From positions 1 to 36,195 of the IMG/VR virus record IMGVR_UViG_3300011335_000134: a stretch of 36,195 bases of DNA; one strand, written 5' to 3'. The notes under the pieces are model-generated. The model saw only the letters and a program-made list of their open reading frames with translations. It did not search any database and was not told where the DNA came from. Position 1 is the first letter of the stretch, and each line of letters opens with the position of its first letter. The stretch comes from a virus. Its lineage: Duplodnaviria; Caudoviricetes. Made by a program: the position numbers and the translations under genes. This document shows positions 1-36,195 of the stretch, one piece after another.

Positions 1-222
1 ACATCAATTCTACTTGTGCCAGCAAATAATGGTCCTGGATCAATCATTCCAATATGTCGCTCTTTGCGGCTGACTTTGGGGCAGGAGAAATACTTTTGGT
101 AGTCTGGGATTTCACCTAAGACATTGGCGGGGAAGCGGCCAGCATCGTTAGCAACTGGCACTTGTTCTGGTTTTAGAACAGTTGTCATTGAATCACTCAT
201 TTCAGTTGTGTCAGCATATACT
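1..222. repeat. Terminal direct repeat (circular assembly overlap), copy 1
   Basis: 1-222 matches 35974-36195 except at position 85 (G vs T) and 127-129 (GCG vs CTT); the methyltransferase frame runs through it. Confidence 0.97.
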
Positions 223-881
223 CCTCGTTTTGATAGTTGGGGTGTTTCGCCAGGCCATGGCACTCTAGTAGCATCAATGTTTATGGCACCTGTGCCATAC
301 TTCAAGCAGTTCTCACGGATGCTGGTTTTAATAGGTTTGCGGGCCAAGGCGATTGGTTCGTGTGCTGGCTTTAAGGCTGTGCCCCAACCTGACCATTGCT
401 GTGCTTCAGGATCTGTGACTTTAGGCTTGCCAACTTGTGTTTCTTTGGTGCTCCACTCCTGGCCAACTTTTTGTCGTGCTACATCCATTTGACCAAAGCC
501 AGCATTCTTTGTAGTATCAACAAAGCCTTCATATTCTTTAACGCCAAGTTTTCTTTGTATCTGCTTGCCAATATCCTGACTCTTGGGAAAGCCACTTGAA
601 TAGATCCACATAATCTGATCGCGGATCTCAAAGCCTGCCGCTTCTAATGTGATGGCCAAGTGATGGTAAGTTCGTGCGGCTGAGAATGCCAAGATATGAC
701 CACCTGGTTTCAATACGCGAAGGCATTCTTGGTATGTCTCAACGGCTCCTGTATTAGCATCCCAGCTCTTGCCTAAGAAGTCAATGCCATAAGGTGGGTC
801 AGTGATAATGGCATCTATGCTGTTGTCAGCCAGGGTTTTTAAGGTGAGTCTATTGTCACCTGTTAAGATAGTGTAGTTCAT
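1..881 (-). CDS. DNA methyltransferase (N6-adenine/N4-cytosine, beta class), N-terminal part; continues across the circular junction to 35652 (about 400 aa in total)
   Basis: Absent from the ORF track because it runs off the end. Manual translation from ATG 881 (RBS AAAGGA) gives MNYTILTGDNRLTLKTLADNSIDAIITDPPYGIDF...ECLRVLKPGG...GFEIRDQIMWIYSSGFPKS...GWGTALKPAHEPIALARKP...GRFPANV. It has the DPPY catalytic motif IV and is in frame with ORF 35652..36173. Confidence 0.95.
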   Translation of the reverse strand, partial: MNYTILTGDNRLTLKTLADNSIDAIITDPPYGIDFLGKSWDANTGAVETYQECLRVLKPGGHILAFSAARTYHHLAITLEAAGFEIRDQIMWIYSSGFPKSQDIGKQIQRKLGVKEYEGFVDTTKNAGFGQMDVARQKVGQEWSTKETQVGKPKVTDPEAQQWSGWGTALKPAHEPIALARKPIKTSIRENCLKYGTGAINIDATRVPWPGETPQLSKRGVYADTTEMSDSMTTVLKPEQVPVANDAGRFPANVLGEIPDYQKYFSCPKVSRKERHIGMIDPGPLFAGTSRID

Positions 882-3448: not shown

Positions 3449-3967
3449 TTAAACCGCTACATCAAAAATAACGCTGATTCTATCTTCTGTGGTGTTGTTC
3501 CAACTACAATGAACCTGTTTGTTGTTAAACCAAAATAGTGTGCCTGGCTCAATAGTTCTGCGTGTGTCTTCCACTGTGTAAATGTAGGTGCCTGTAATAG
3601 CAATATGATAGCGATGTCTTTGTTTATAATACTCACCATCATCCATGTGCGGGAACACAAACTTACCTGGCAACAGTTTGACAATGGCTATCCTTGCCAC
3701 CAGTTCAGGTGGAAAGTATTTGTAAATTAGTTTGAGTGTTTCTGGATAGCGTTTGAATACTTCAGTGGGCTTGTATTGGTGGTTGTCTCTATGATCCGCA
3801 ATAGGAACAGGACTCCATGATTTTACAAGATTGATTGTTTCAGTGCCACCTTGTTCATACAGCAAGGTTTGACGCTTGGTGTCAAGTAGCCAGTTTTCTG
3901 GCTGTGCTTGTATTTCTTCTGCGGCCTTGGCCACATTGAAGTTTTTGGTAATAATTCGTATGCTCAT
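3449..3967 (-). CDS. Aspartyl/asparaginyl beta-hydroxylase-like 2OG-Fe(II) oxygenase
   Basis: LLPGKFVFPHMD (HxD), RYHIAI, GTLFWFNNKQVH (distal His) and WN..TEDRISVIFD (2OG-binding Arg). Confidence 0.88.
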   Translation of the reverse strand: MSIRIITKNFNVAKAAEEIQAQPENWLLDTKRQTLLYEQGGTETINLVKSWSPVPIADHRDNHQYKPTEVFKRYPETLKLIYKYFPPELVARIAIVKLLPGKFVFPHMDDGEYYKQRHRYHIAITGTYIYTVEDTRRTIEPGTLFWFNNKQVHCSWNNTTEDRISVIFDVAV

Positions 3968-4267: not shown

Positions 4268-7200
4268 TTATGCTCCAACTGGTGTCACTGTTAATGCTGT
4301 TGATGGAATACCAGGAACAACACCTGCGGCAGCCACATATTCTAAGATAACTGAAGTATCTGTTGCAGCCCATGCAAGTTCATAGTAGTCGCCTGCTGCC
4401 GCTGTGACCAAATAATTCCATGACGCCATAATACGATCACCGTTGCCAGCAATACGAGTATCACCTGCTGTGTTAGCAACTGTGGTGCCGTTCTTCTTAA
4501 TCCAGATAAAGGAATTGTGTGCGCCGCCTGCTGATTGGCTTAACTGTGCTGAAAACTGCAGGTTGTAAATGCCTGCGTTGGCAAAAGTAATACGAGTTAG
4601 TGCTGTGCCATTGCTTACAATAGTCACGCCGTTGTTGGCATTTGTGGTGCCAAATATCATCAAGTTTTCTGCGTTGGCCACAGGATTGGCTTGTGTCACA
4701 AGGCTGGAAAAATCACCGTATTGACGACTGTAAGTGACTTTATTGCCAGGTAAACTTGCACCTGCGGCTGTTTGTAATGTGACAGCATCACTTTTAATTG
4801 TGGTTGCTAACTGTGTAAATTCAGCAGTTATAGCACTTGTGCCACCACCTGCAGGTGTTGCCAGGATCTTTGTTGAGGCTCTACTACCAATGTAGATACG
4901 ATCAGTGTCTGCTGTAAACGAGTCATCACTTACACTCAAACCAATTTCGTTATCGCCACTTGATTTGTAAGTGCCATCAATACGAGCAAAGTTACTACTT
5001 GTTACTGTGCCAGCAACACCTAAACGGAAGTCAGTGCTTTCATTATCTGCTGGGCCTGCCGCGGCTGTTTGTTGAGTCAGTAATAAACCAGTGCCTGGAG
5101 TGCTTCTGCTAATTGTAGTTCTACCACTATTGGTAATTTGTGCTGAGCCTGACGCAAAAGTTGCGTAGGCTGTTCCACTGGCTGCCAAGGTAGTTGATGT
5201 TGGAGCAAATGTAGCCACTGTGCTGACAGTTGAAGCACCTGGTGTTCCACTTGCTGTTCCTGCGCTAATTGTGGTTTGACTAATCTTACTTTGTAATGTT
5301 GCCAGTCCACTAAATGTAGCACCTGTTTGATCACCATTGGCCAAATATAATGTCCAGGCATTATCACCACCTGTTCTATAGACTGCTGACATATCAGCAA
5401 TGGTATAGTTTGTAGCATTTGAACCATTAACACGATAACGGAAACCTGTGCCATCTTGGTCATTTGGTGCGGCCTGATCACTACGGCTCAACTGAATGTT
5501 GAAACTTGGGCGGCTTTCTAACACACCAGGAGTGCCTACAGTGGTTCTTGTAATTGTGCTTAAACTTGTGCCACGAATATCTGTGCCAGTTGATACGGCA
5601 GTAATATAAGTGCTTGTGCCTGCTGTGTTTTTAACTGTAAATGTGTCTTGGTTGATACTACCAGTAGTAGCACCAAGTGTCATGTAGTTGGTTGCTGTCA
5701 GTGTGCTACCAGTAATAACTTCGTTGGCAAAAGTATATGCGTTAGATTTAAATGTGGCCGCACTAGCTGTTAGATCCATAAAGTTGAATCTGTTGGCAGG
5801 AGTTATGTTAGTGCTGTTGGCAAAGCCACGAATTCTAAAGCCCATACCAGCGGCTGTTACAGTATTAGCCGCCGCAATAGTTCCACCACTGGTAAAGCCT
5901 GTTGTAGCATTGGCATAACTGATACTTGAAGTTGTTGCGGCAGTAATTGTATAAGTGCCGTTGTAGCCACTTGGTGTCATGCCAGCAATGGTCACACTTT
6001 GACCCACAGCGTATGGTGCTGTGTTTTGTGTTGTAAATAAGAGTGTTGCTACTGAACCTGTTCCTGACGCACCTGTCACTGCTGTTGTAAAAGTAGTTGA
6101 GTTGGTAAATGCTTGACGAGCATAACCTTGTGCTTGTATTGGTTGAACAGCAACAAAGCCACCACCAGCATTGGCAGTAGCAATTTGTGAAACATAGTTG
6201 TTTGAAGTGCCTGCTGTATAACCATCAAAGTTTAATGCGCCTAATACTTGGTTAGCACTTGAACCTGCTGGTGCTGAACTACTACCTGTGGCACTTGACA
6301 ATACTAATGAAGCGGCATTGTTAACACCAGCACCTGTATCACCAGAATGATATCTGGCTGCAAAACTGGCTCCATATCCATTGGCACCACCAGCACTTGA
6401 AACAGCAACTACACCGTTATTGCCTGAGGCTGTGCTTAATGCACTGGTTGGTGGGACATAAGTTGTATTTTGTGTAACTAAAACTTGGCTACCGTTCACA
6501 GTCAAGTTGCCACTTGTGACTACTCGTTCAGCACCATCAGTTGAATCAATTTTTAAGATGCCTGCTTTGCCAGTAGCACCAATGCTTAATGCACTGGCGT
6601 TGTTGTCAACCACAGTCCATGTTTGTGCTACTGTGCTTGATATGTTAGGATCAGCAAGTTGTATGATACCACTGGCGCTGTCTAAGATTAGGTCACCAGT
6701 TGTTGTGCCAATTGTGTTATCAGTAGCAACACCCACTGTGATATTACCTAATGTGGCGCCTGATGCACTAAAGTTGCCAGAAGCATCACGAGCAACAATA
6801 GTGCTTACTGTGTTGGCATCTGTAGCATCACTACCTAATGTGACTTCTGTGGCACTGGTGTATGTGGCTGTGATGTGGCCAGCATTTGTTAGTTTAACTG
6901 TGTCAGTGCTTGAGTCTGAACCAGTTAAGTTTAAGTTAGCACCACCTGTTGCGCTTGTTGCCGCAAAGTCATAAGTTGTATTTGGACCAACTGGAGCATC
7001 AATTGTAATTTCATTTGGAGAAGTTTCACTAACAGTCACATTAGTGCCACCCAGGAACTTTGTTGATCCAACAATAGTAACAGTTGCACCAACAATTTCT
7101 TGTAAGTCTAATTCAACACCGCCTGTAACAGGCACAACATTTGTATCGTATGTTGGAACATTTGGAATTAGTCCATCAACATAACTCTTGGTTGTCAAGT

Positions 7201-8536
7201 CAGAGCCAACAGTAGGACCTGCTGGATTGATTGTAGCGTATTGTGTAGCACCATCTCTAATGCTAATGCTATCTCCACTGGCATTTAACACGCCAGCAAT
7301 GTATTCACCACTGACAATACGGAATGGTTCTGTTGTGCTACCTGTTGCTTGAACAGATAAGAACTTGTTGTTTGACGCATCATTCGTATTAGCAACACTC
7401 ATTGATGCTGCCGCACTTGTAGTAGCGTTTGGTGCTCTGACACGCCAGCCTGAAGTATTACCAGTTGTGCTTATAACACTAGGACGATTCAAGCGGTTGT
7501 TGTTTTCGCTATAACTGAATGCTGTATCTTGTGCCAAACTAACACTATTACCACCAATAGTTAAGTCATTGTCAAGAGCCAGGCTACCTGTGCTATCCAG
7601 GATCATCTTAGAAGTATATGCCGCACCATTCTCCATCAAACCAAAATACATTGAGAAGTCTTCACTGCCTGCTGTAATGTCAGTTAAGTTTACGCCAATA
7701 TAACCTGCTCGTTCAATATTGCCTGGTTGTGCTTCAACTTGCCATTCTAATGTATTACCAAAGCCCACAGCAGGTGTAAGAGAAGTTTCTGCACTTAATG
7801 CCAATGATCTAACAGCAGTAGTAACAGCACTATTTCTTGTTATCAAAGTTGGACCATCGCTACCACTGGTGATGTTGACACCATTATTACCAGTAGGAAG
7901 TAAGTTAAGATCACCACTTGTAGTAGCAATGGTATTTCCATCCACAACACCAATGGTGATGTTGTTAAAGTCGCCACTGTCTGCTACCAAGTTGTTGCGG
8001 ATTGTGGTAGTGCCAGTTGTTGCACCCATTGTAAGTGTAGTAGCACCTTGGAAAGCATTTACTGTAGTTGGACTATTCAACAAGAAGAAACTTGAACTGT
8101 TTGTGCTTAAAATACTTGTTGTGTTAGTATCAATCTCACCTGTGGCACTTTGTAATACAAGTTGGCCACTTGTGGTGTTAATAGTGTTGTCAGTTGTAAC
8201 ACCAATGGTGATGTTGCCAAAGTCAGCACCGCCACCGTTAATTGTGCCATTTACTACCAAGTTGTTGTTGATTGTTGTAGTGCCTGTGCTGGCACCAATG
8301 TTAACACTTGTAGCGGCATTACCCAAGTTAATGGTTGTTGCGTTAGTGGGGAAGATATTGCCAGTGGCTGCTGTAGTAAGAATGTTGCCTGACAAGACAT
8401 ACAAGTCTCCGCGAACAACTACATTGCCTGAACTATCTGGAATGGGCGTGCCAGCCTCACCATACAAACTGGTTGAGTTGCCTGAATTTGTGTTTTGTGT
8501 GGTTACTGAGCCGTATAAACTTGAAGAACTTGTCAT
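4268..8536 (-). CDS. Tail fibre / receptor-binding protein (1422 aa)
   Basis: Thr/Gly/Ser/Ala-rich; repeats G/NNITI/VGV..D/.NTI.TT.G.L.L (x3) and TT.N....AT....GA.TGTTTI.NNL (x2); C-terminal C1q/BclA-like jelly-roll pattern (GIYNLQFSAQL...WIKKNG...GDYYELAW); follows the adaptor. Confidence 0.85.
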   Translation of the reverse strand: MTSSSSLYGSVTTQNTNSGNSTSLYGEAGTPIPDSSGNVVVRGDLYVLSGNILTTAATGNIFPTNATTINLGNAATSVNIGASTGTTTINNNLVVNGTINGGGADFGNITIGVTTDNTINTTSGQLVLQSATGEIDTNTTSILSTNSSSFFLLNSPTTVNAFQGATTLTMGATTGTTTIRNNLVADSGDFNNITIGVVDGNTIATTSGDLNLLPTGNNGVNITSGSDGPTLITRNSAVTTAVRSLALSAETSLTPAVGFGNTLEWQVEAQPGNIERAGYIGVNLTDITAGSEDFSMYFGLMENGAAYTSKMILDSTGSLALDNDLTIGGNSVSLAQDTAFSYSENNNRLNRPSVISTTGNTSGWRVRAPNATTSAAASMSVANTNDASNNKFLSVQATGSTTEPFRIVSGEYIAGVLNASGDSISIRDGATQYATINPAGPTVGSDLTTKSYVDGLIPNVPTYDTNVVPVTGGVELDLQEIVGATVTIVGSTKFLGGTNVTVSETSPNEITIDAPVGPNTTYDFAATSATGGANLNLTGSDSSTDTVKLTNAGHITATYTSATEVTLGSDATDANTVSTIVARDASGNFSASGATLGNITVGVATDNTIGTTTGDLILDSASGIIQLADPNISSTVAQTWTVVDNNASALSIGATGKAGILKIDSTDGAERVVTSGNLTVNGSQVLVTQNTTYVPPTSALSTASGNNGVVAVSSAGGANGYGASFAARYHSGDTGAGVNNAASLVLSSATGSSSAPAGSSANQVLGALNFDGYTAGTSNNYVSQIATANAGGGFVAVQPIQAQGYARQAFTNSTTFTTAVTGASGTGSVATLLFTTQNTAPYAVGQSVTIAGMTPSGYNGTYTITAATTSSISYANATTGFTSGGTIAAANTVTAAGMGFRIRGFANSTNITPANRFNFMDLTASAATFKSNAYTFANEVITGSTLTATNYMTLGATTGSINQDTFTVKNTAGTSTYITAVSTGTDIRGTSLSTITRTTVGTPGVLESRPSFNIQLSRSDQAAPNDQDGTGFRYRVNGSNATNYTIADMSAVYRTGGDNAWTLYLANGDQTGATFSGLATLQSKISQTTISAGTASGTPGASTVSTVATFAPTSTTLAASGTAYATFASGSAQITNSGRTTISRSTPGTGLLLTQQTAAAGPADNESTDFRLGVAGTVTSSNFARIDGTYKSSGDNEIGLSVSDDSFTADTDRIYIGSRASTKILATPAGGGTSAITAEFTQLATTIKSDAVTLQTAAGASLPGNKVTYSRQYGDFSSLVTQANPVANAENLMIFGTTNANNGVTIVSNGTALTRITFANAGIYNLQFSAQLSQSAGGAHNSFIWIKKNGTTVANTAGDTRIAGNGDRIMASWNYLVTAAAGDYYELAWAATDTSVILEYVAAAGVVPGIPSTALTVTPVGA

Positions 8537-8545
8537 GTGCGATCC

Positions 8546-9754
8546 TTATTTGATTGAGTATTGGCGATACTGTCTTGGTTGCCATACACTGGTTAGTCGT
8601 GTGTGTCCACCTGACCATTTGCCTAAACTGTTTTGATCTGATACCACATTCCAAGCATCTTGGAACTTGGCCTGATATACTGCGGCATCTGTTTCATTGT
8701 GTCGTTTGATGTAGTATTCGCGTAGTGTAGCATACACATAACCCTCAGGCCATGTTTGTAAGACTGCGTTGTTTTGAACAATCAATCCTGTTTGTGTAAC
8801 GCCAGTAACTGTGCCTGCTGTAGGTGTAGTTCCACCTGTTGCTGTAAAAGAGATGCTGGTTGCGCTTAAGATACTGGCCACTGTATAAACACCACCTGTG
8901 CCTAATGAGCCTGTGCCTGCTGTTGCGTAAATTTCATCACCAACTTCCAAATCACCAACACCAGTCATGCCTGTGATTCTAGCAGTCCAAGGACCAGTTC
9001 CTGAGATAGTGCCAACTGTGCCAGTAGCACTAATAACTTCATCTGTAACAGGAGCAAACAACAAGGGCCATGCTTTGTAGTAATACAAGTTGATTAAGTC
9101 GCCTTCAGCAACATATGGTAAGAACTGATACTTGTTATACACTTCACTGAACTTACCACGGATAACTGCTGGCACATTCACTGGTTGTAGATATAACTGA
9201 GCAATCATACCTTGTGTGATAATATCTCTATCACCAATACGGTCATACACAATCCAAGGACCTGACTGACTTGATTGCTGACCTGTGGTAGTAAACAACA
9301 ATGTGCCACTTACTGTGCCTGTGTTAGGCAAACTCAGTGTAACAACACTACCAGATCCACCACCACCTGTGATGTTTTGAATAGTAGCACCTGACGCAAT
9401 GCCAGTGCCTGTGACCAACATGTTGTTGTTGATAGCACGACCTGGAGTGCTGGTTAGTGTGATTGTTGTTTGACCTGAGGTGCCTGTTGCTGTGGCACTG
9501 GTGTTGATTTGTGAGCCTTGTTTGAAGAACAAGATTGGCTTGTTCATATCACCTGGAATAGGAATACGACCCATTGAGTCAGCAACGCCAATATTCTCTG
9601 GTGCGTATGGATCACAGCGTAAGGCTGGTAGTTCAATGTTTCTCATTGACATTTCTGCCATAAAGATACATTGTTTTATTTCAGCATCATTAGTGCTACC
9701 TGTAAAGTCTTTGATGAATGTTACTAATGCATCACCAGTTGGAATGTTAAACAT
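8546..9754 (-). CDS. Head-tail adaptor protein with two inserted small beta-domains
   Basis: Position after the capsid genes; adaptor-like helical ends (FIFMAE-type IFMAEMSMRN; NAVLQTWPEGYVYATL...Y.AKF); two Thr/Gly-rich inserts. Confidence 0.65.
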   Translation of the reverse strand: MFNIPTGDALVTFIKDFTGSTNDAEIKQCIFMAEMSMRNIELPALRCDPYAPENIGVADSMGRIPIPGDMNKPILFFKQGSQINTSATATGTSGQTTITLTSTPGRAINNNMLVTGTGIASGATIQNITGGGGSGSVVTLSLPNTGTVSGTLLFTTTGQQSSQSGPWIVYDRIGDRDIITQGMIAQLYLQPVNVPAVIRGKFSEVYNKYQFLPYVAEGDLINLYYYKAWPLLFAPVTDEVISATGTVGTISGTGPWTARITGMTGVGDLEVGDEIYATAGTGSLGTGGVYTVASILSATSISFTATGGTTPTAGTVTGVTQTGLIVQNNAVLQTWPEGYVYATLREYYIKRHNETDAAVYQAKFQDAWNVVSDQNSLGKWSGGHTRLTSVWQPRQYRQYSIK

Positions 9755-21290: not shown

Positions 21291-21722
21291 TTATTCTAGA
21301 GTTGACCTATACATCCAAATGTGCTTTTCTAAAGCAAGCACACGATCCTGTGCGTAGTTGGCAATTTGGTCTTCGCCTTCTTCAGTGGCAATAGTGATAA
21401 GTTCTCTATGTTCTTTGGCAAGGTATTCTAAGTCTTCCATACCTGCTTCAATAAGTTCATCTGCTGTGCCTTCAATGGCATCTGTTGAAATGTTTGCGTC
21501 ATCTAGCACTTCTTGTATATCACAAGGCATGTATTCTTGTAAAGTGCGTAAGAGTTCACCTAGTGTATCAATTTGGCTCTGTAGGTCTTCATAAGTCTTT
21601 TGTAGCAACTTGTGATCGCTGGCAAAGTTGCGGCCCACAATGTTTACATGTGCCGCATGGCTACGGAAATAAGCGACAAAGTTGTCTTTAAAGATTTGGG
21701 TTAGTGCTTCTGTTGTTGTCAT
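21291..21722 (-). CDS. dps: Dps / ferritin-like DNA-protection protein
   Basis: H(V)NIVG.NF...H, D...E with H-x11-H-x14-D-x3-E ferroxidase spacing intact; C-terminal EKHIWM. Confidence 0.92.
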   Translation of the reverse strand: MTTTEALTQIFKDNFVAYFRSHAAHVNIVGRNFASDHKLLQKTYEDLQSQIDTLGELLRTLQEYMPCDIQEVLDDANISTDAIEGTADELIEAGMEDLEYLAKEHRELITIATEEGEDQIANYAQDRVLALEKHIWMYRSTLE

Positions 21723-27628: not shown

Positions 27629-28780
27629 TTAGAATCTGCGTTTAGGAGCAACAGGTCCTGTAACTGGATATGAAAACTGATCATAAGGGTTGAAGCCATT
27701 GCCTCCACCATAATATTGTAGAATCTCTTCTGCTGTTGGAGCACGAGCGGCTTCTTGTATGCCCCAACCTTGTGTGCCAGCACCAGGAATGTTTTGGTCT
27801 AATGCTGGATTGTAAGTTGAACCATACTGTGTAGGATGTGTGCCCCAGTAGAACTTGCTTTGTGCAGGGTCTGTTGTTTGATAGTAAGCACTAATTGGAA
27901 TATCACCAGCGTTCATTACATTGGTAGTGCGTAATCCTTGTGATGGTCTTGGAACTACTGGGCCAGTAACTGGGGGTGGGGTTGTGCCACCTGTATCACT
28001 ACCACCTGAGTCTGTGCCACCACCTGTATCATTAGGGCCACCAGCATCTCCACCACCTGTATCAGTTCCACCACCTGTATCAGTGCCTCCAGTATCTGCT
28101 CCTGTATCACCTGAGTCAGCATTGCCTGTGTCTGCACCGCCTGTGTCATCTCCAGAACCAGTATCACTGCTACCTGAGTCAGCACTACCAACATCACCAA
28201 CACCTACACCACCAGTATCACTACCAGTATCTGCTCCTGTATCACCTGAGTCAGCATTACCAGTATCAGCACCACCTGTGTCATCTCCAGAACCAGTATC
28301 ACTGCTACCTGAGTCAGCACTACCAACATCACCAACACCTACACCACCAGTATCACTACCTGTGTCAGCGCCTGTGTCTCCAGAATCTGCACCACCTGTG
28401 TCAGCGCCGCCAGTATCAGTTCCTGAGCCTGTATCACTACTACCTGAGTCTGCACCACCTGAGTCTGCACCACCTGAGTCTGCACCACCCCCGTCAGCAC
28501 CGCCATCTCCACCATCACCGCCATCACCACCATCACCTCCACCATCACCTCCACCATCACCGCCACCATCACCGCCACCATCGTCATACTCTGGTAAGCC
28601 TGTGTGAGGGTTGATAGCACCAGATCCGCCATGCTGTTTTAGCATACGGGCTTCATCTGGATTAATGTGGGCTAGAATGGTGTCGTCTCCACGGCCTCGT
28701 TCGCGTAGCATTTCTGCTATACGATCTAGATCTTCATCAGATAACTGACTAAAGTCTATATTGTTGTTTTTCTTTGTCAT
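27629..28780 (-). CDS. Putative virion protein with conserved N-terminal GRG.DT.LAHINP.EA..LK..GGSG.INP.TGL.E motif and long Gly/Asp/Thr/Ser repeat tract
   Basis: I recall the N-terminal motif from aquatic podovirus proteins near ejection genes; about 200 aa of DxG-type repeats follow. Confidence 0.75.
   Translation of the reverse strand: MTKKNNNIDFSQLSDEDLDRIAEMLRERGRGDDTILAHINPDEARMLKQHGGSGAINPHTGLPEYDDGGGDGGGDGGGDGGGDGGDGGDGGDGGADGGGADSGGADSGGADSGSSDTGSGTDTGGADTGGADSGDTGADTGSDTGGVGVGDVGSADSGSSDTGSGDDTGGADTGNADSGDTGADTGSDTGGVGVGDVGSADSGSSDTGSGDDTGGADTGNADSGDTGADTGGTDTGGGTDTGGGDAGGPNDTGGGTDSGGSDTGGTTPPPVTGPVVPRPSQGLRTTNVMNAGDIPISAYYQTTDPAQSKFYWGTHPTQYGSTYNPALDQNIPGAGTQGWGIQEAARAPTAEEILQYYGGGNGFNPYDQFSYPVTGPVAPKRRF
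28090..28380. repeat. 135-bp (45-aa) tandem duplication within a low-complexity DTG/DSG tract
   Basis: CTGTGTCATCTCCAGAACCAGTATCACTGCTACCTGAGTCAGCACTACCAAC occurs at 28141 and 28276. Confidence 0.9.
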
Positions 28781-28822: not shown

Positions 28823-29452
28823 TTAATGGATGGGGCCAAAGTCTGGTTCAGTCTTGAACTTCTTAACATACGCATTCCAACTCATTGCAAAGTCATCTAG
28901 AGTAAACAGACTAATCAATTCTTTTTGTTGGATATAATTTTCTGGATGTGTTGCTATTGTTTTATTCATTAACGCAACATACTGATCAGCAATGGGCAAT
29001 CCAAATGCTTCTAATACTCTAACACCATTCTTTAGGGTGTTTTGACTACCAGCAACATCATCTACTAGCAATACTGGTTTGCCATTAGGGCGACCTTCAC
29101 AGAAGTTTAGTAGTCCATATACCTTACGGTTCTTCTTGATTGAGATCATTGTTGTGCCCAACACAGTGGCCATAGCAAGGCCCAACACTACACCTGCGTC
29201 TTCGCAAGCACAGATCTGCACATCCTTATTGGGCAGTTTCTCTACTAACAATTCAGCCGCTGTGAATACAAACTTGGGATCAAACATACAACGGCGCAAG
29301 TAAACTTGCCATGTGTAATATGTGTTGGGTGCTTTACCAGGGATTGGACGATGTCCTGGGGCTACTCTATAAACAGCCGTATGCTCTATCATATCATGTA
29401 GATAAGCCATTTTGGTTTCTCTTGAGGCCAGGGGCATTTGTGTATTAATCAT
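28823..29452 (-). CDS. Type I phosphoribosyltransferase (PyrE/Apt-like fold)
   Basis: ICACEDAGVVLG, IKKNRKVYG flexible loop and VLLVDDVAGSQNTL PRPP-binding loop; ATG 29452 with AAAGGA RBS. Confidence 0.85.
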   Translation of the reverse strand: MINTQMPLASRETKMAYLHDMIEHTAVYRVAPGHRPIPGKAPNTYYTWQVYLRRCMFDPKFVFTAAELLVEKLPNKDVQICACEDAGVVLGLAMATVLGTTMISIKKNRKVYGLLNFCEGRPNGKPVLLVDDVAGSQNTLKNGVRVLEAFGLPIADQYVALMNKTIATHPENYIQQKELISLFTLDDFAMSWNAYVKKFKTEPDFGPIH

Positions 29453-29462
29453 TTCATTTCCT

Positions 29463-30437
29463 TTATTGTTTGACAACCTGAACGCTCATGCTACGGTTGA
29501 AAAACTTGCTTTGAGGAAAGACCACATCACCAGAAATGATGTCAATCTCTACTTCAAGTATATACCAATAGTAGCCCAGGCCTGGTGTATCAATAATACT
29601 TGTGAATATGGTTTCTAAAGGTGGCGCTGTCTTATAATAACTGGTGCTGTCTGGAGCAGGTGGTATAGTTCCTGAGCCTGCTGGCACTTTTAAGAAGTAG
29701 TTCTTAACTGCCACAGTTGAACTGTCACCAAACACAAAGTCAGGATTGATAGGATCATTGTTGTTAAAGGCTGTGCGTCTTGTTATTGTTACTGAGTATT
29801 CAAACTCACTTGCTGTGGTGCAGGTATAACTCAACAAGTTGTTTAACTGTCCACTAATGAACACTCTATCTGTGGCACCATTTACTGTTACTTTGGCTTG
29901 ACAGTCTGTTGACACTAACGCACCTCTGTAGAACGCATCATAGAATATAGTTCCGCCACCTGCCGCTGGGTATGTCAGACCATCTCCATTAAATCGTGCT
30001 ATAACATATTCAGTTGTGCATTCAACTACACCAGTTGGACTATTACGACCATTGTAGTTGCCATTCACGCCAGCAATAATAATAGGATTACCAATGGCAA
30101 ATGGTGGTGTGGCTTGTGTTTCAGCAAATGTATACTTGGCTGTTCTACTATCAATGTATTGACTTAGGGCCAGGGCAATAGGCGCAACATAAGTTTTGGT
30201 TGCTGAACTATCATTTGTAAAGGGTGTCCTAAAGTTGCCTGTTAGATACGCTGGTGTGTTGGCAGGAATCTGAGCAGGCAAGTCATACTTGGCCAGAGTG
30301 GCTTCATCATAATACTCAATGGTGGGATTGGTAAAGCCAGCAAAGTTTTGCCCTAGGCCACTGGGACCTGAAAGCAAGTTATTGACAGCATCAATGATGC
30401 CATCCTGGTCTTTTGATTCAACTGGATACTTGGCCAT
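29463..30437 (-). CDS. Tail-associated structural protein (324 aa)
   Basis: Coupled to the nozzle gene; contains the PFAIG..I.I.GV...YNG beta-domain also seen in the tail fibre and nozzle. Confidence 0.7.
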   Translation of the reverse strand: MAKYPVESKDQDGIIDAVNNLLSGPSGLGQNFAGFTNPTIEYYDEATLAKYDLPAQIPANTPAYLTGNFRTPFTNDSSATKTYVAPIALALSQYIDSRTAKYTFAETQATPPFAIGNPIIIAGVNGNYNGRNSPTGVVECTTEYVIARFNGDGLTYPAAGGGTIFYDAFYRGALVSTDCQAKVTVNGATDRVFISGQLNNLLSYTCTTASEFEYSVTITRRTAFNNNDPINPDFVFGDSSTVAVKNYFLKVPAGSGTIPPAPDSTSYYKTAPPLETIFTSIIDTPGLGYYWYILEVEIDIISGDVVFPQSKFFNRSMSVQVVKQ

Positions 30438-33400
30438 TATCTGTCATCCTCTGTTTGTGTATACTGCCATGTGGTGCTGTTACAGATCCAAATGTTTTCA
30501 GTGCTACTATTACTAATCTCTAGACTGTTGACACGATGTGCGTTCTGTGTAATCTGAACCCAAGGATAATCAGTATTGGTAGCCATGGTAATTGCTGTTG
30601 TTTCTAATGGTGCTTGCCCTACTGAGTTAGCACCTTCTACTTTGATGCTGACACTACCAACCAAGTAATCTTCTTGCACTGGGTTAACTGGCAAGCCAGA
30701 GTATGCCAAGTTGTTGACTTCTGGTAGGATACGATGAACCAACAACTTACCTGAGTAGTTGTCCAGGATCTTGATGTTGTCTCGTCTGAAGTTACTTTGA
30801 ACAGGATACTCTCTTGTTTGTGGGCCTAAGAAGTTATAACCTTCATCCTTGGTCACCAAGTTTCTATCTGTTATACCACGAGCATACACCACTGTTCTGC
30901 GTCCATCATTGTAGGTCCATTCATTGGCTCCTATGCCTGCTACAGTTAAAGTTAAGATTCTACCATTAAAGTTAGTTGCAGTGACAGTTACAACTGCGTC
31001 ATTGGCAGGAGTGTTGCCACCCAATGCTGTGCCTAATATCTTAATGGTATCTCCCACTGCATAACCTGATCCACGCACATTGGGTGTAACGCCACCTGTA
31101 TAGCCACTAGCATAGCGTAGTATGTTAAAGTGAGCACCAGTGCCAGTGCCTGTTAAGGTTGTGCCTGGCACATTGAAATACCATTGCTGGCTTGTCCATA
31201 CAGGACTTTCAGTAGCAAAGGTTGCGGCTTGAACTTCACGAGGTGCGTTAAAGCAGTCTAGGTCATGTCTGTAAGCCAACATCATGTTTGGCACGCCATC
31301 ACTTTCAAAGTCAAAGTCTACACCTAATACACTACCTGCTGTGGTTGTTACACCTGCGCCAGTTGGTGTCTCACTTAGTTGAAAGTATGTTACTCCATCT
31401 AGTGTGTAGTTGTCAACAACATAGTAAGTTGTTGGGCCACCAGTATAACCTGAGATACTGCCTGTGCCTGACTCAGTGCCACTTAGGATTACACTTAGTC
31501 CATTATGCATTGGACCAGTATCATAACCATACTCTAAGGCACAACTGAATGTGCCTGCTGTATCTACAATGGCTATGCCACTGATTACAGGAACCTTTGT
31601 GGGATAGTAAATCTCAATCTGATTTTTCTGTGTGTTGGACTGCATGAACACACGCTCAGTGTAAGCAGGATCTAGTTGATCATAGAACCAGTTCTTAACA
31701 CGCTGGTTGCCAAGGCTCTTAAAGTCTTGTCCATCAAATACCCAGATATCTCTAGCATCTAAACCATACACCATCTTGTCTGTGTTGGCCCAGCAGTTGC
31801 TTGTAAGCATACCACGACCTTGGTTGTGTAGTCTAACACCCAGAATAGGAGCTGAAGTGGTTGAATAGTTTAGCGGACTGAACACTACAGTATCCCAGTA
31901 TGAACTTAGGAAGAACTGTCCATTACAAGGGAAACCATCAATCACTGTGCCACGCAAGGGAACTTCAAGTTGGTTGGCCACATTAAGAACAGTTGGCTCC
32001 CATGTGTCAGGTGCTTCACTAAGACCAAACGCCTGACTCCATTGAACTGTTACTGGATACTCAACAATGCTGCCATCTAGTTCTGTTACTGTGAGACCAC
32101 CTGCTACCAAGATACAGCCCACATTGGGAGTATTGTATAAGCGCATGAACTGAGCGTGATAACCTATCCAGTTGGGATTATAGTTCCAGGCATACAAGGG
32201 AGCAACTGAGCCACCGCCTGGATAGGCTGCACCAGGCACGCTTGAGTATGTTATGGTATCTACAGTAGAACTTACAACTGTAAATGTTCCGTTGTAGTAA
32301 TTGGAGACACCTGAGATAACAATCTTATCACCAGTGGCATAAGGTGCTACTGCGTATGGTGTCTTCAGAGTAATCATTTGTGTGGTGGCATCTACATATT
32401 CAATGTCACTGATGTCACCAGGAACTGTATTGCTATACATGATCATGATGGGATGTGGATCACTGACACTACCAGGTGTTGTTTGTGGTCCTGCTGTAGT
32501 GCCAGCATAACTTACACTTGATTGCGTAACGCCTGTCACTATCTTAGTGCCACGGAAGCCAGTGGGCACAATGTTCTCAACTAGAATCTCTTGTCCAATA
32601 GCAAATGGGCTATACACAAATGTCTTTCCATCTAGTGTGCCTGCATCAGTTGTTATAGGAGCGCCAGCAAGTGTAGCACTCAGCGTAAATTGGTTATTGG
32701 CATTGGTGCTGACAATGAAGTATGTGCCGTTAGCAACTAAAGGAGGTTGAACACGCACACCAACAGCAGTGGTAACCAGGCCACCAGATGTTTCAATAGC
32801 ATCGCCAATGGCATCAACTAGAGTAAAGTATGTGGCACCATTTGTCTCACCAATGTAATAGGTTGTAGGATCAGAGTAGCCAGTTATTGAGGGGGCCAGG
32901 ATAGTATATGTTAAACCAGTTGGTGTTCCACCTGTTGTGTCAATGGCATTACCTTCAGCATCCACAAGTTTAAATGTTGTTAGACCGTTTGTGCTTTTAA
33001 TAACATAAGTTGTTGGATTGGTATAACCCACAATGGCAGGCTTTAGAACTTTGACTGTGGCACCTACACCCAAACCACCTGTTGTCACAATAGGCTCTAA
33101 TGTGTCTTTGTTTACCAGAGTGAATTCAGTTGATCCATTAGTGGCACTTATTAGATAACTTGTGGGACTAGTATAGCCTTGAATGTTTGGTGCCAGTAGC
33201 GTAAAGGTTAGACCAGCCAAGGTGCCACCTGTTGTCACTATAGGACTCCCATCCATATTGGTCAAGGTGAATGTTGTTGTGCCGTTAGTGGTCTTGATCA
33301 GATAGTCTTTGGGATTACTATAACCCACAATGGCAGGTGCGCTGACATTATAACTTAGACCAGTTGGAGTGCCTGGCACACTGGCTATGGCTGCTCCTGC

Positions 33401-35461
33401 TGTTGTGGTCAGCGTGAATGTTGTTGAGCCATTGGTAGCACTGATCAAGTATGTTGTTGGATTGGTGTAACCTACTACACCTGGAGGAGTAATAGCAAAG
33501 CCCAAGTCAGTTGGTGTGCCAATGTTGGTTACAAGTGCTGTGCCTTCTGCTGTGGTCAGAGTAAAGGTAGTTGTTCCATTGGTTGCGCTTATGGTATAAA
33601 CTGTGGGATTGCTATAACCAAAGATTGTTGTTTCATTTACATTTAAGGTTAAGCCTGCTGTAGTGCCAGCTGAGGTCACAATGGCATTACCACTTGTGTC
33701 TGTCAGCGTAAAGGTTGTTGAACCATTTGTGGCTGAAATACTGTAGGTAGTTGGGTTTGTATAACCTGTAATAGTTCCTGTGCCAGTGCGAGCGCCTGAG
33801 ATGGTAATGGTCTGTCCAACCTTTAAAGTTGATGTTGAAGCCGTGCAACTGAACTGTCCACCAGCACCAGTTATGGCAACACCACTAAGTGTAAAGCCTG
33901 TGTCCGCACCTGTGACTGCAATGCTCTGACCAATTGCTAGAGTTGTTGCTGTGCAACTAAACTGTCCTGCTGTGCCAGTTGCCGCAACACCAGCCAGTGT
34001 AGAACCTGTTGAAGTATTGGTTCCACTTATGACTACACTTTGGCCTTTAACAAGTGTAGCGGCTGTGCAACTGAACTGTCCAGTTGTGCCTGTGATCTTT
34101 ACTGCGCTGAGACTCTGTGGAGTCAGAGTGGTATCACCAGATACTCTAATGGTCTGTCCTGTCAACAGCGTTGTTGAGCCACATGAGAACTGTCCAGCAA
34201 TGCCTGTGGCTGCCACAGTGGTAAGTGCTACTGCTGGTGTTGAAGCGGCACCTGTTATCTCTACTGTTTGTCCAGTTTGGTATGTGCTTGCCGCACTTGA
34301 GAACTTGCCTGTGTTATCTAATATCCTAACTGAACTCAGAGTGGTATCAGTATTTGATATGGCACCTGATATGGTTAAACTTTGTCCTGCTCTAATGGTT
34401 GAAGTTGAACAACTAAAGTCCCCAGTGGCACTTTGGATCTGAACACCACTTAAGACTGTTGTGGCAGTTGGGAAGGTGCCGCTGATGATAACACTCTGAC
34501 CTTGTGTTAAAGGATACTGGCGCTGTCCTGTTATGGCTGTTCCAACAGCAATGGTCTGAGTCTTGCTCACTGTCCATACGCTGGCACCAGTTGAACTACC
34601 AGAAACATAAGCACTGATGTATGTGTCAGCAAGTATCTTTGTTCCTGTTGAGTCTGTGCCACTTAATAACATACCATTGTAGATAACGCCAGGACTTGTG
34701 ACTGAGGTAACTGTTAAGGTTGTGCCTGAGATGCTACCAACAAAGTCTGCTGGCAACATCATATTTGTAAATCTAAACTCACCTGTGTTGTTGGCTATGC
34801 TTACTTCATTTGCTCTGCTGGCATGCGTATTGGTGTTGGTTCCCCCTATGGTAATCTTCTGACCTGTCTTTAAGGTCTCACCTGATGTGTATACAAATGT
34901 GCCTGTGCCACCTGTATCAGTTCTAATGATGCTGACACCAGACACTTCATCTGCTTGTGGGGCAAAGGTCAGTGTGCTTGTGCCTGCGGCTGAACTTGCT
35001 GTTAGTGTTTCAAAACTCTGACCAGTGAACTCAGGCCAGAACATTGGAGGGTTGGATTCATCATTGTAGAAAGGAACAGTTCCATTCCAGGCTTCTGTAA
35101 TGTTAGTGCCTTGAGTATAGGTGGCAAATGGACCTTCTGCTGGCGTAATGTCTTGCCAGTCTCCATCACCATTTGATGCTAACCATTCACCTTCTGTGGT
35201 GGCCACAACAAAGTAGAAATCATTTTGTCTACCTGCTTGAGGCTTACGATATCCTGCACTCACAAAGGTTGGTGTGCCAGGAACAATGGGCAGTATAATC
35301 TCATCACCTGCTACTGAGCGTATGCCACGGATGTCTGTCTCCACATTGAGGCCACTGTTGTATTCATTTGGTCCTAATGCGCTGGATGGCACATCAGGAC
35401 TGAAGGTCATCTTTTGAAAAGGTATCTTGGCCTCTTCATATGCTTTTTTGGTTTGTGCCAT
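30437..35461 (-). CDS. Tail nozzle / DNA-stabilisation (beta-propeller) protein with large inserted beta-domain arrays, 1674 aa
   Basis: Propeller-like core segments (N-terminal SPD...NV, VQWS, DIWVFDG...LG..RVK.WF, EI.YP) interrupted by Thr/Gly-rich repeats; first gene of the tail/ejection block. Confidence 0.72.
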   Translation of the reverse strand: MAQTKKAYEEAKIPFQKMTFSPDVPSSALGPNEYNSGLNVETDIRGIRSVAGDEIILPIVPGTPTFVSAGYRKPQAGRQNDFYFVVATTEGEWLASNGDGDWQDITPAEGPFATYTQGTNITEAWNGTVPFYNDESNPPMFWPEFTGQSFETLTASSAAGTSTLTFAPQADEVSGVSIIRTDTGGTGTFVYTSGETLKTGQKITIGGTNTNTHASRANEVSIANNTGEFRFTNMMLPADFVGSISGTTLTVTSVTSPGVIYNGMLLSGTDSTGTKILADTYISAYVSGSSTGASVWTVSKTQTIAVGTAITGQRQYPLTQGQSVIISGTFPTATTVLSGVQIQSATGDFSCSTSTIRAGQSLTISGAISNTDTTLSSVRILDNTGKFSSAASTYQTGQTVEITGAASTPAVALTTVAATGIAGQFSCGSTTLLTGQTIRVSGDTTLTPQSLSAVKITGTTGQFSCTAATLVKGQSVVISGTNTSTGSTLAGVAATGTAGQFSCTATTLAIGQSIAVTGADTGFTLSGVAITGAGGQFSCTASTSTLKVGQTITISGARTGTGTITGYTNPTTYSISATNGSTTFTLTDTSGNAIVTSAGTTAGLTLNVNETTIFGYSNPTVYTISATNGTTTFTLTTAEGTALVTNIGTPTDLGFAITPPGVVGYTNPTTYLISATNGSTTFTLTTTAGAAIASVPGTPTGLSYNVSAPAIVGYSNPKDYLIKTTNGTTTFTLTNMDGSPIVTTGGTLAGLTFTLLAPNIQGYTSPTSYLISATNGSTEFTLVNKDTLEPIVTTGGLGVGATVKVLKPAIVGYTNPTTYVIKSTNGLTTFKLVDAEGNAIDTTGGTPTGLTYTILAPSITGYSDPTTYYIGETNGATYFTLVDAIGDAIETSGGLVTTAVGVRVQPPLVANGTYFIVSTNANNQFTLSATLAGAPITTDAGTLDGKTFVYSPFAIGQEILVENIVPTGFRGTKIVTGVTQSSVSYAGTTAGPQTTPGSVSDPHPIMIMYSNTVPGDISDIEYVDATTQMITLKTPYAVAPYATGDKIVISGVSNYYNGTFTVVSSTVDTITYSSVPGAAYPGGGSVAPLYAWNYNPNWIGYHAQFMRLYNTPNVGCILVAGGLTVTELDGSIVEYPVTVQWSQAFGLSEAPDTWEPTVLNVANQLEVPLRGTVIDGFPCNGQFFLSSYWDTVVFSPLNYSTTSAPILGVRLHNQGRGMLTSNCWANTDKMVYGLDARDIWVFDGQDFKSLGNQRVKNWFYDQLDPAYTERVFMQSNTQKNQIEIYYPTKVPVISGIAIVDTAGTFSCALEYGYDTGPMHNGLSVILSGTESGTGSISGYTGGPTTYYVVDNYTLDGVTYFQLSETPTGAGVTTTAGSVLGVDFDFESDGVPNMMLAYRHDLDCFNAPREVQAATFATESPVWTSQQWYFNVPGTTLTGTGTGAHFNILRYASGYTGGVTPNVRGSGYAVGDTIKILGTALGGNTPANDAVVTVTATNFNGRILTLTVAGIGANEWTYNDGRRTVVYARGITDRNLVTKDEGYNFLGPQTREYPVQSNFRRDNIKILDNYSGKLLVHRILPEVNNLAYSGLPVNPVQEDYLVGSVSIKVEGANSVGQAPLETTAITMATNTDYPWVQITQNAHRVNSLEISNSSTENIWICNSTTWQYTQTEDDR
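32609..34945 (-). repeat. Two abutting intragenic repeat arrays: 8 x A (about 38 aa) then 8 x B (about 49 aa)
   Basis: A = L..V.I.G..GQFSC..TL..GQ.I.ISG (34945-33773); B = I.GY.NPT.Y.I..TNG.T.FTL....G..I.T..GT..GL (33772-32609). Confidence 0.9.
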
Positions 35462-35651: not shown

Positions 35652-36195
35652 TCACTCAAACAACTCCTTGGCTGGGTCTCTAGTGGCCGCATACCAAGCC
35701 TCTATACGCTTACTGGCTATAGTCACATAAGCAGGGTCTAACTCGCAACCAATGTAAGGGTGCCCTAACTCTACAGCCGCACAGCCAGTTGATCCTGAAC
35801 CGTTGAATGGATCAAGGACCGTGCCACCTGGTGGTGTGACAAGTTTGATTAGATACTTCATCAGTTCAATGGGCTTGACTGTGGGGTGATTATTAGTGCC
35901 TTCTGGTTGATTTTTTTCAATCTCACTAAAGTTTTTTCCTTCTTTTCGTTCCCCTTCTTTACCACTCATATATACATCAATTCTACTTGTGCCAGCAAAT
36001 AATGGTCCTGGATCAATCATTCCAATATGTCGCTCTTTGCGGCTGACTTTGGGGCAGTAGAAATACTTTTGGTAGTCTGGGATTTCACCTAAGACATTGC
36101 TTGGGAAGCGGCCAGCATCGTTAGCAACTGGCACTTGTTCTGGTTTTAGAACAGTTGTCATTGAATCACTCATTTCAGTTGTGTCAGCATATACT
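35652..36195 (-). CDS. DNA methyltransferase, C-terminal part (SAM-binding motifs)
   Basis: NNHPTVKPIELM.YL..L (motif X), VLDPFNGSGSTG (motif I FxGxG) and IGCELD; in frame with 1..881. Confidence 0.95.
   Translation of the reverse strand, partial: VYADTTEMSDSMTTVLKPEQVPVANDAGRFPSNVLGEIPDYQKYFYCPKVSRKERHIGMIDPGPLFAGTSRIDVYMSGKEGERKEGKNFSEIEKNQPEGTNNHPTVKPIELMKYLIKLVTPPGGTVLDPFNGSGSTGCAAVELGHPYIGCELDPAYVTIASKRIEAWYAATRDPAKELFE
35974..36195. repeat. Terminal direct repeat, copy 2
   Basis: 218 of 222 positions identical to 1-222. Confidence 0.97.

Follow-up and report, generated by a model that had tools for sequence, protein, structure and literature searches.

Nested FCCH-like beta-barrels in a podophage tail nozzle protein, predicted to form a single-chain rod

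Long protein appendages are normally built as tandem beads, solenoids or trimeric fibres, and T4 gp18 has been likened to Russian dolls. In contractile tail sheath proteins and flagellins, accessory domains are formed from outgoing and returning parts of the chain, according to the available text of PMC9230969. In the cyanobacterial RNA polymerase subunit beta'2 (RpoC2), the Si3 insertion consists of nested sandwich-barrel hybrid motifs, of which SBHM-2 to SBHM-5 are discontinuous (PMC10895346, accessible sections). Si3 has eight domains on six levels with branch points, and it is the deepest example, at six levels, in a 2026 survey that covered 48,551 domain insertions (PMC13114784, accessible sections); the word 'phage' is absent from the text of that survey in its accessible form. 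E1 FCCH-like six-stranded beta-barrels have been described on phage tails, with FCCH domains directed outward from the tail tubes of siphophages, and the examples in the available part of that report are single copies (PMC13576161). Nozzle extensions are described for phage A1002 (PMC13730344) and cyanophage A4 (PMC12002296), with nested repeats unmentioned in the accessible text of either. The nozzle relatives of the protein studied here are SU10 gp17 (Kuravirus), Pa223 and VP1, SU10 gp17 being among the closest solved structures.

Here we describe a nozzle protein, P0001, with an array of split beta-barrels. As in Si3, copies of one small beta domain appear to be inserted into each other, giving an elongated out-and-back arm, and the array has the features of recursive self-insertion of the Si3 type (homologous, mostly discontinuous domains on several levels), in a predicted rather than a solved structure. 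Unlike Si3, which is an enzyme insertion of 8-10 domains, the nozzle array would be a virion appendage in which one barrel is nested to eight levels, or to nine if the outer barrel at its base is counted, against six in the 2026 survey; its copy number runs from 0 to 9 within one family, and it recurs in unrelated scaffolds. Si3 chains did top the list when the array was searched with Foldseek (E 1e-4), but at TM 0.06-0.08 and rmsd above 25, and no SBHM rows stood among the best structural alignments of the array model. The barrel thus appears to differ in fold from the Si3/SBHM (HABAS) family; the site differs as well, Si3 being inserted in the trigger loop of RNA polymerase and the array in a phage nozzle. 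The out-and-back layers of sheath proteins and flagellins are mostly different domains and few in number, in contrast to the regular series of copies of one barrel in the nozzle, and the FCCH-like barrels described on phage tails resemble the predicted unit fold. The array extends known recursive domain insertion, and it is valuable for how deeply it nests, for a natural series of lengths without gaps and for recurring elsewhere.

The window, that is the whole stretch of 36,195 bases analysed, is a podophage-like contig with an SU10-type capsid and portal, a terminase and ejection-like proteins, its virion genes lying on the minus strand. The nozzle gene sits in this podophage-type virion module, with the capsid, portal, terminase and a transglycosylase-bearing ejection-like protein upstream or adjacent on the same strand. 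A profile of the conserved P0001 core matched the SU10 nozzle 7z47_G (E 1.3e-8) and also the VP1 nozzle gp16. The nozzle fold was assessed on the relative L011 (one barrel, 980 aa), whose core stands in for that of P0001 and is 79% identical to it over 197 aa. The L011 model (67-row alignment, pLDDT 85, pTM 0.83) aligned to the Pa223 nozzle 9nwi_Y with Z 30.1 (rmsd 2.5, 497 residues) and to SU10 gp17 (7z47_G) with Z 28.4, gave a Foldseek E value of 3.5e-23, and has the platform and seven-bladed beta-propeller of the SU10 gp17/Pa223/VP1 gp16-type nozzle. The core profile match to SU10 and VP1, together with these Z values of 28-30, bears out the nozzle label that the original prediction had given to the reading frame 30437-35461(-); P0001 is a podophage nozzle of this type. 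Its parts, and one barrel elsewhere in the window used for comparison, are as follows.

30437..35461, minus strand: tail nozzle protein P0001, 1674 aa, a platform and beta-propeller core with several inserted beta-barrels
34952..35017, minus strand: C1, first part of the likely outer (ninth) barrel (aa 149-170; weak C-profile match; intact at the same site in the relative L057)
34841..34945, minus strand: A1, first half of barrel 1 (aa 173-207; motif; model range 20..818, aa 169-967)
34478..34813, minus strand: A2, first half of barrel 2, itself split by side barrel D (aa 217-328; motif)
34523..34756, minus strand: D, intact side barrel inside A2 (aa 236-313; model residues 87-164)
33794..34453, minus strand: A3 to A8, six first halves at a spacing of about 38 aa (aa 337-556; motifs)
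33626..33889, minus strand: A8B8, innermost contiguous barrel and predicted stalk tip (aa 525-612; model range 373..459)
32609..33772, minus strand: B8 to B1, eight second halves at a spacing of about 49 aa (aa 564-951; motifs and model ranges)
32462..32608, minus strand: C2, second part of the likely outer barrel (aa 952-1000; C profile 53 bits)
32201..32419, minus strand: E, another C-like barrel, likewise intact (aa 1015-1087; C profile 26 bits; also in short relatives)
31304..31588, minus strand: intact A+B barrel at a second nozzle site (aa 1292-1386)
5870..6094, minus strand: intact C-type barrel in a 1422-aa tail-fibre-like protein (4268-8536), a C-profile seed, for comparison only and not part of the stalk

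Residues 173-951 of P0001 hold eight A halves and then eight B halves of an FCCH-like beta-barrel of about 88 residues. The A motifs start at aa 173, 217, 337, 375, 413, 451, 489 and 525, and the B motifs at aa 564, 613, 662, 711, 760, 810, 859 and 908, so that all 16 motifs of the original prediction were found where it had placed them. The central A8-B8 join is present as claimed, and the other elements it had named were located as well: the uninterrupted A+B copy later in the protein (aa 1292-1386), the further insert in A2 (aa 236-313) and the pieces of another domain split by the array (aa 149-170 and 952-1000), whose intact form lies in the tail fibre (E 6e-28). An assembly artefact is ruled out by the divergence of the units, which share at most 65% (A) or 71% (B) protein identity, and at most 69% DNA identity, by Tandem Repeats Finder, which reported no tandem repeat for the array, and by nine other proteins that parse to the identical 8+8 string. 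Judged by their sequence divergence, the P0001 units are old.

The balance between A and B was followed in a homologue set of 65 proteins, P0001 included, and 65 viral loci (130 sequences). An array was counted where the two flanking anchors were both located and enclosed more than 100 residues, as in 72 of the 130; the rest mostly lack an array and some are truncated. Sixty-eight of the 72 arrays are distinct sequences, although many are closely related, with one three-barrel form common to 18. The anchor-to-anchor distance forms a ladder of 112, 200-203, 282-288, 371, 458, 541, 624-643, 709-725, 806-818 and 895 aa, and array length is described by 20 aa plus 88.2 for each barrel and a further 83.6 where D occurs; in all 72 the residual stays within 12 aa, against the 38 or 49 aa that an unpaired half would add. 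Parsing relied on a profile for each of four motifs (a and c from A, x and y from B); the profiles had been trained on these very proteins and were thresholded on shuffled sequences. The arrays were read under the rule that a barrel reads a, c, x, y with any number of whole barrels allowed between any two parts. The four quarter-motif HMMs gave 1338 forward matches versus 1 on reversed sequences. Equal A and B counts, which had been expected across homologues, were returned automatically for 61 of the 72 arrays, as balanced nests of 1 to 9 barrels, and were read by eye in the other 11, in each of which one motif or a few had been missed or called falsely. Tokens placed in random order parsed as a nest in 15 of 200,000 cases for three barrels and in 0 of 200,000 for five or eight.

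Intact barrels are inserted at three loops, a-c (P0016), c-x (P0055, two side by side) and x-y (P0006), and at the sequence level the arrays branch as well as deepen. The array is dispensable for the core job of the nozzle, because many relatives with 65-83% identical cores carry none. Eight-barrel arrays are kept across proteins only 54% identical in the array region. In two nozzles that lack the A/B array (L029:1481-3664 and L002:7038-9482), the E barrel is split by a D-type barrel when read by eye, a two-level nesting of different barrels.

AlphaFold was run on aa 150-1010 of P0001 with a 14-row alignment. The resulting model is all-beta (pLDDT 74.5, pTM 0.47); two of the five models were confident (pLDDT 74.5 and 61.2) and the other three reached 35-41. 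Pairing was read from the first and last aligned residues of structural alignments, for five of the eight layers. Individual barrels, 66-75 residues long, match the model over the ranges 184..706 (aa 333-855, A3 with the sixth B, hence A3+B3), 221..657 (aa 370-806, A4 with the fifth B, A4+B4), 259..609 (aa 408-758, A5 with the fourth B, A5+B5) and 374..461 (aa 523-610, A8 with the first B, A8B8), and a 105-residue match covers 20..818 (aa 169-967, A1 with the eighth B, A1+B1). The model is in the nested register, where parallel pairing would join A3 to the third B. The proposed pairing of each Ai with its Bi is therefore seen in the model for layers 1, 3, 4, 5 and 8; layers 2, 6 and 7 have no covering range, and against it stands one row, 223..694, which matches no single A-B pair. 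Taken with the balanced counts and the 88-aa length ladder, the nested model ranges support the topology A1(A2(...(A8B8)...)B2)B1, and we regard the nested split-barrel architecture predicted for the nozzle array as highly probable.

Mirroring between the halves was measured in 18 linear arrays of at least five barrels, themselves related to each other, by correlating A-A with B-B similarity. The mean rho was 0.59 for nested versus -0.15 for parallel pairing, and nested pairing was better in 18 of 18 arrays; for P0001 rho was 0.74 (permutation p 0.011). With the outermost layer removed the values were 0.45 versus -0.10 (17 of 18), and with the two outermost layers removed 0.23 versus 0.15 (10 of 18). 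The expectation that the A and B repeat trees would mirror each other is borne out through the two outer layers only: the signal vanishes without them, and the mirror is therefore mostly a base-to-tip age gradient, short of a full tree match. When units were mapped by best match onto the layers of P0001, 29 of 99 followed nested and 7 of 99 parallel order, a difference given little weight because consensus-like units attract matches.

A ninth domain, split by the whole array, had also been proposed. The C profile was built from six intact C-type barrels, the tail-fibre barrel among them and none from P0001. Its positions 1-22 are matched weakly by aa 149-170 (4 bits) and its positions 21-73 by aa 948-1000 (53 bits). 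In L057 a C-type barrel is intact at the same nozzle site without an array, and in the model of the one-barrel relative L011 both outer-barrel parts are confident and stranded (ten-residue blocks 79-95). The P0001 model is at odds with this, as the outer barrel is unfolded there, with pLDDT below 50 at model residues 1-14 and 813-861. C second halves were found directly behind 17 of 72 arrays and first halves at 44 of 72, a count made uninformative by a poorly placed search range. The ninth domain is thus upheld by sequence and by L011 and not by the model of P0001 itself, and this more distant barrel is the likely base of the array.

The unit itself was compared with known folds and families. 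P0001 barrels align to the FCCH domains of UBA1 and UBA6 with Z 5.2-6.8 (rmsd 2.3-2.9, 73-75 residues), the A8B8 tip barrel aligning to the UBA1 FCCH with Z 5.2 (rmsd 2.9, 74 residues); these values, all below 8, are tied with those of EF-Tu domain II, reductase and ATPase barrels. Side barrel D scores Z 7.1 against EF-Tu domain II-type barrels and Z 5.7 against the E1 FCCH domain. None of 14 intact barrels matched Pfam PF16190 (E1_FCCH) at E up to 1, and the nearest named Atlas cluster is FCCH (score 0.89), which is a lead only. Because the Z values are all below 8 and PF16190 is without a match, the modelled barrel is called only FCCH-like and is kept outside the E1_FCCH family. Pfam and PHROGs gave no named family within the array, an intact-barrel profile found no sequence relative among solved structures (best E 0.036), and a single-barrel sequence search matched no annotated phage record. 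For the whole array, Foldseek matched no PDB fold (TM at best 0.09) and returned, among viral models, only uncharacterised or fibre/baseplate-like matches of low TM, and no look-alike by sequence is indexed. Literature searches, with most subscription journals and supplements outside their scope, returned no report of self-nested barrels in phage nozzles.

The alignment of P0006 with P0001 contains one large gap, 85 aa at position 883, which corresponds to a whole barrel in the x-y loop of B2. Over the motif segments this extra barrel shares 75-77% identity with barrels from other phages and no more than 64% with those of its own protein. Because P0006 equals P0001 plus one barrel that is nearer to other phages' barrels, its sequence suggests that an intact barrel was probably gained in a single step, here from another genome. 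The claim that length could change only through matched A and B duplications gives way to a reading in which whole barrels are gained or lost at three loops. Growth would proceed by in-frame insertion of DNA for a whole intact barrel into one of the three tolerant loops, the usual site being the A-B loop at the tip (c-x). Repeated insertion at the tip would give A(AB)B each time, keeping the halves balanced with no unbalanced intermediate, and would leave the outer layers oldest, which matches the observed pattern. We consider it probable that the arrays grow by whole-barrel insertion.

The intact-barrel profile detected 645 representatives among 1.84 billion. Of the 147 new representatives among the matches listed, 88 carry a single x motif; the remainder include tandem barrels and nests within unrelated hosts. 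The same barrel is nested four deep (by eye) in a T4-like tail sheath, P0080, and is nested in a 2806-aa tail-fibre-like protein, P0071, and likewise in P0081, P0101 and P0179. A second nozzle family, very distant and barely detected by the profile of the first, carries between 3 and 9 barrels; the counts are equal in 46 of its 51 proteins, and reading by eye showed balance in the remaining 5. Because nests sit in unrelated hosts and in this second nozzle family, nesting of the barrel appears likely to have arisen more than once. We give even odds to the broader proposal of a mobile cassette of about 88 codons, passed whole between genomes and nesting into the loops of its own copies, by which unrelated nozzles, sheaths and fibres would grow branchable rods with a reach tuned barrel by barrel. 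If true, this would be a general class of length-tunable filament that differs from tandem repeats and keeps the two ends of the chain at its base. Two further proteins with the barrel, P0074 and P0066, one nest between them, have EGF-like or Sushi matches and look eukaryotic, a possible transfer.

Our main reading, to which we assign a probability of about 0.8, is that the nested barrels form the single-chain rod predicted by the model, likely a built-in fibre projecting from the tail. Each barrel would sit in a loop of the previous one, the chain running out through the A halves, turning in the unbroken tip barrel and returning through the B halves; the ninth barrel would form the base, and side barrel D would hang off layer 2. 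By analogy with the nozzle hexamers of SU10 and A4 there would be six rods per tail. At a barrel size of about 3 nm each rod would be some 20-30 nm long, and it may reach through host surface layers or bind weakly to them. A side-fibre role is favoured because many close relatives lack the array, sheath and fibre proteins are decorated with the same barrel, and FCCH domains on tail tubes point outward; on these analogies a fibre-like role for the rod seems slightly the better bet.

The same nested rods might instead act as in SU10, all six aligning on attachment into a cage or tube as an extension of the DNA channel. In SU10 gp17, blades 2 and 3 of the propeller are separated by four Ig-like domains, which straighten into a 277-angstrom nozzle (PMC9509320, accessible sections). 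The P0001 barrels differ in fold from these domains, and the array site seems to lie about 40 residues beyond the SU10 site, inside the next blade, in a weak alignment read by eye; aligning the kuravirus nozzle to place the insertion gave a weak N-terminal match only. In the kuravirus nozzle examined, the insertion is made of repeats that all run in the same direction and belong to another sequence type, with an acidic stretch behind them, and the SU10 structure models 912 of 1005 residues; we infer tandem Ig domains with a flexible return, unlike P0001, where the return strand is built into every domain. The kuravirus type of extending nozzle was accordingly rejected as a class for P0001, whose insertion consists of split beta-barrels. 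An array that is missing in many close relatives and otherwise has one to nine barrels with branches, and a barrel that also nests in sheath and fibres, where no channel is built, fit channel extension poorly, and we consider it unlikely.

It is also conceivable that the rod is real and does little, barrels piling up at tolerant loops and being kept since unbalanced forms misfold. The many relatives without an array, the presence of the barrel at many sites in many proteins and a tip without a distinct binding domain are what such a process would leave. Against this, the array takes up about 2.4 kb of a 36-kb genome and has kept its motifs conserved despite divergence to 23-58% identity at third codon positions, eight-barrel arrays persist at 54% identity and deep nests occur in two distant nozzle families, which makes this account distinctly improbable beside a functional rod.

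Domain swapping, in which the A array of one hexamer subunit completes the B array of its neighbour, would give the same sequence balance and mirroring, and SU10 nozzle domains do contact neighbouring subunits (PMC9509320, accessible sections). The single-chain model, however, pairs the halves within one chain, the tip barrel is unbroken, and branched forms and nests in unrelated scaffolds suit self-contained barrels better, so that we hold swapping to be very improbable. That A and B are two independent tandem arrays, solenoids or beads adjacent by chance, is suggested by the regular period of each (38 and 49 aa) and is already largely refuted by zero unbalanced arrays among the 72 + 51 examined, by contiguous A+B in most carriers (those 88 of 147 among the matches listed) and by the nested ranges in the model, the units being half-domains with nested pairing rather than the self-contained repeats in sequence order of a bead or solenoid fibre.

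A single-chain nested rod would be an alternative appendage design, monomeric, with both ends at the base and pluggable into any surface loop. The natural 0-9 series with its branches makes folding testable, with partner halves up to 700 residues apart, as well as growth without unbalanced intermediates and the tuning of appendage length by phages to host surface layers. The nested array also offers protein design a ready-made scaffold, and it escapes both repeat finders and Pfam.

Several other features of the window were observed. The nozzle carries another Gly/Thr-rich insert of a different type at 30926-31180 (aa 1428-1512); P0063 has several units like it, in what looks like a nested array of its own at a different site. 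The adjoining 324-aa gene (29463-30437), without a family match, has a C-type barrel at aa 99-144 (E 5e-7). A virion structural protein at 8546-9754 (phrog_2941, perhaps an adaptor) shows two barrel-like inserts by eye and none in the C and D searches. Among the ejection-like genes, a 383-aa protein without a family match (27629-28780) contains an extended region of Gly/Asp/Thr/Ser repeats. This small podophage genome also has ferritin/Dps-like (21291-21722), phosphoribosyltransferase (28823-29476) and Asp/Asn hydroxylase-like (3449-3967) genes. A DNA methylase gene spans both window ends (35652-36195 and 1-881), and the contig is probably a complete circular genome, because the joined ends give one 480-codon frame across both methylase pieces.
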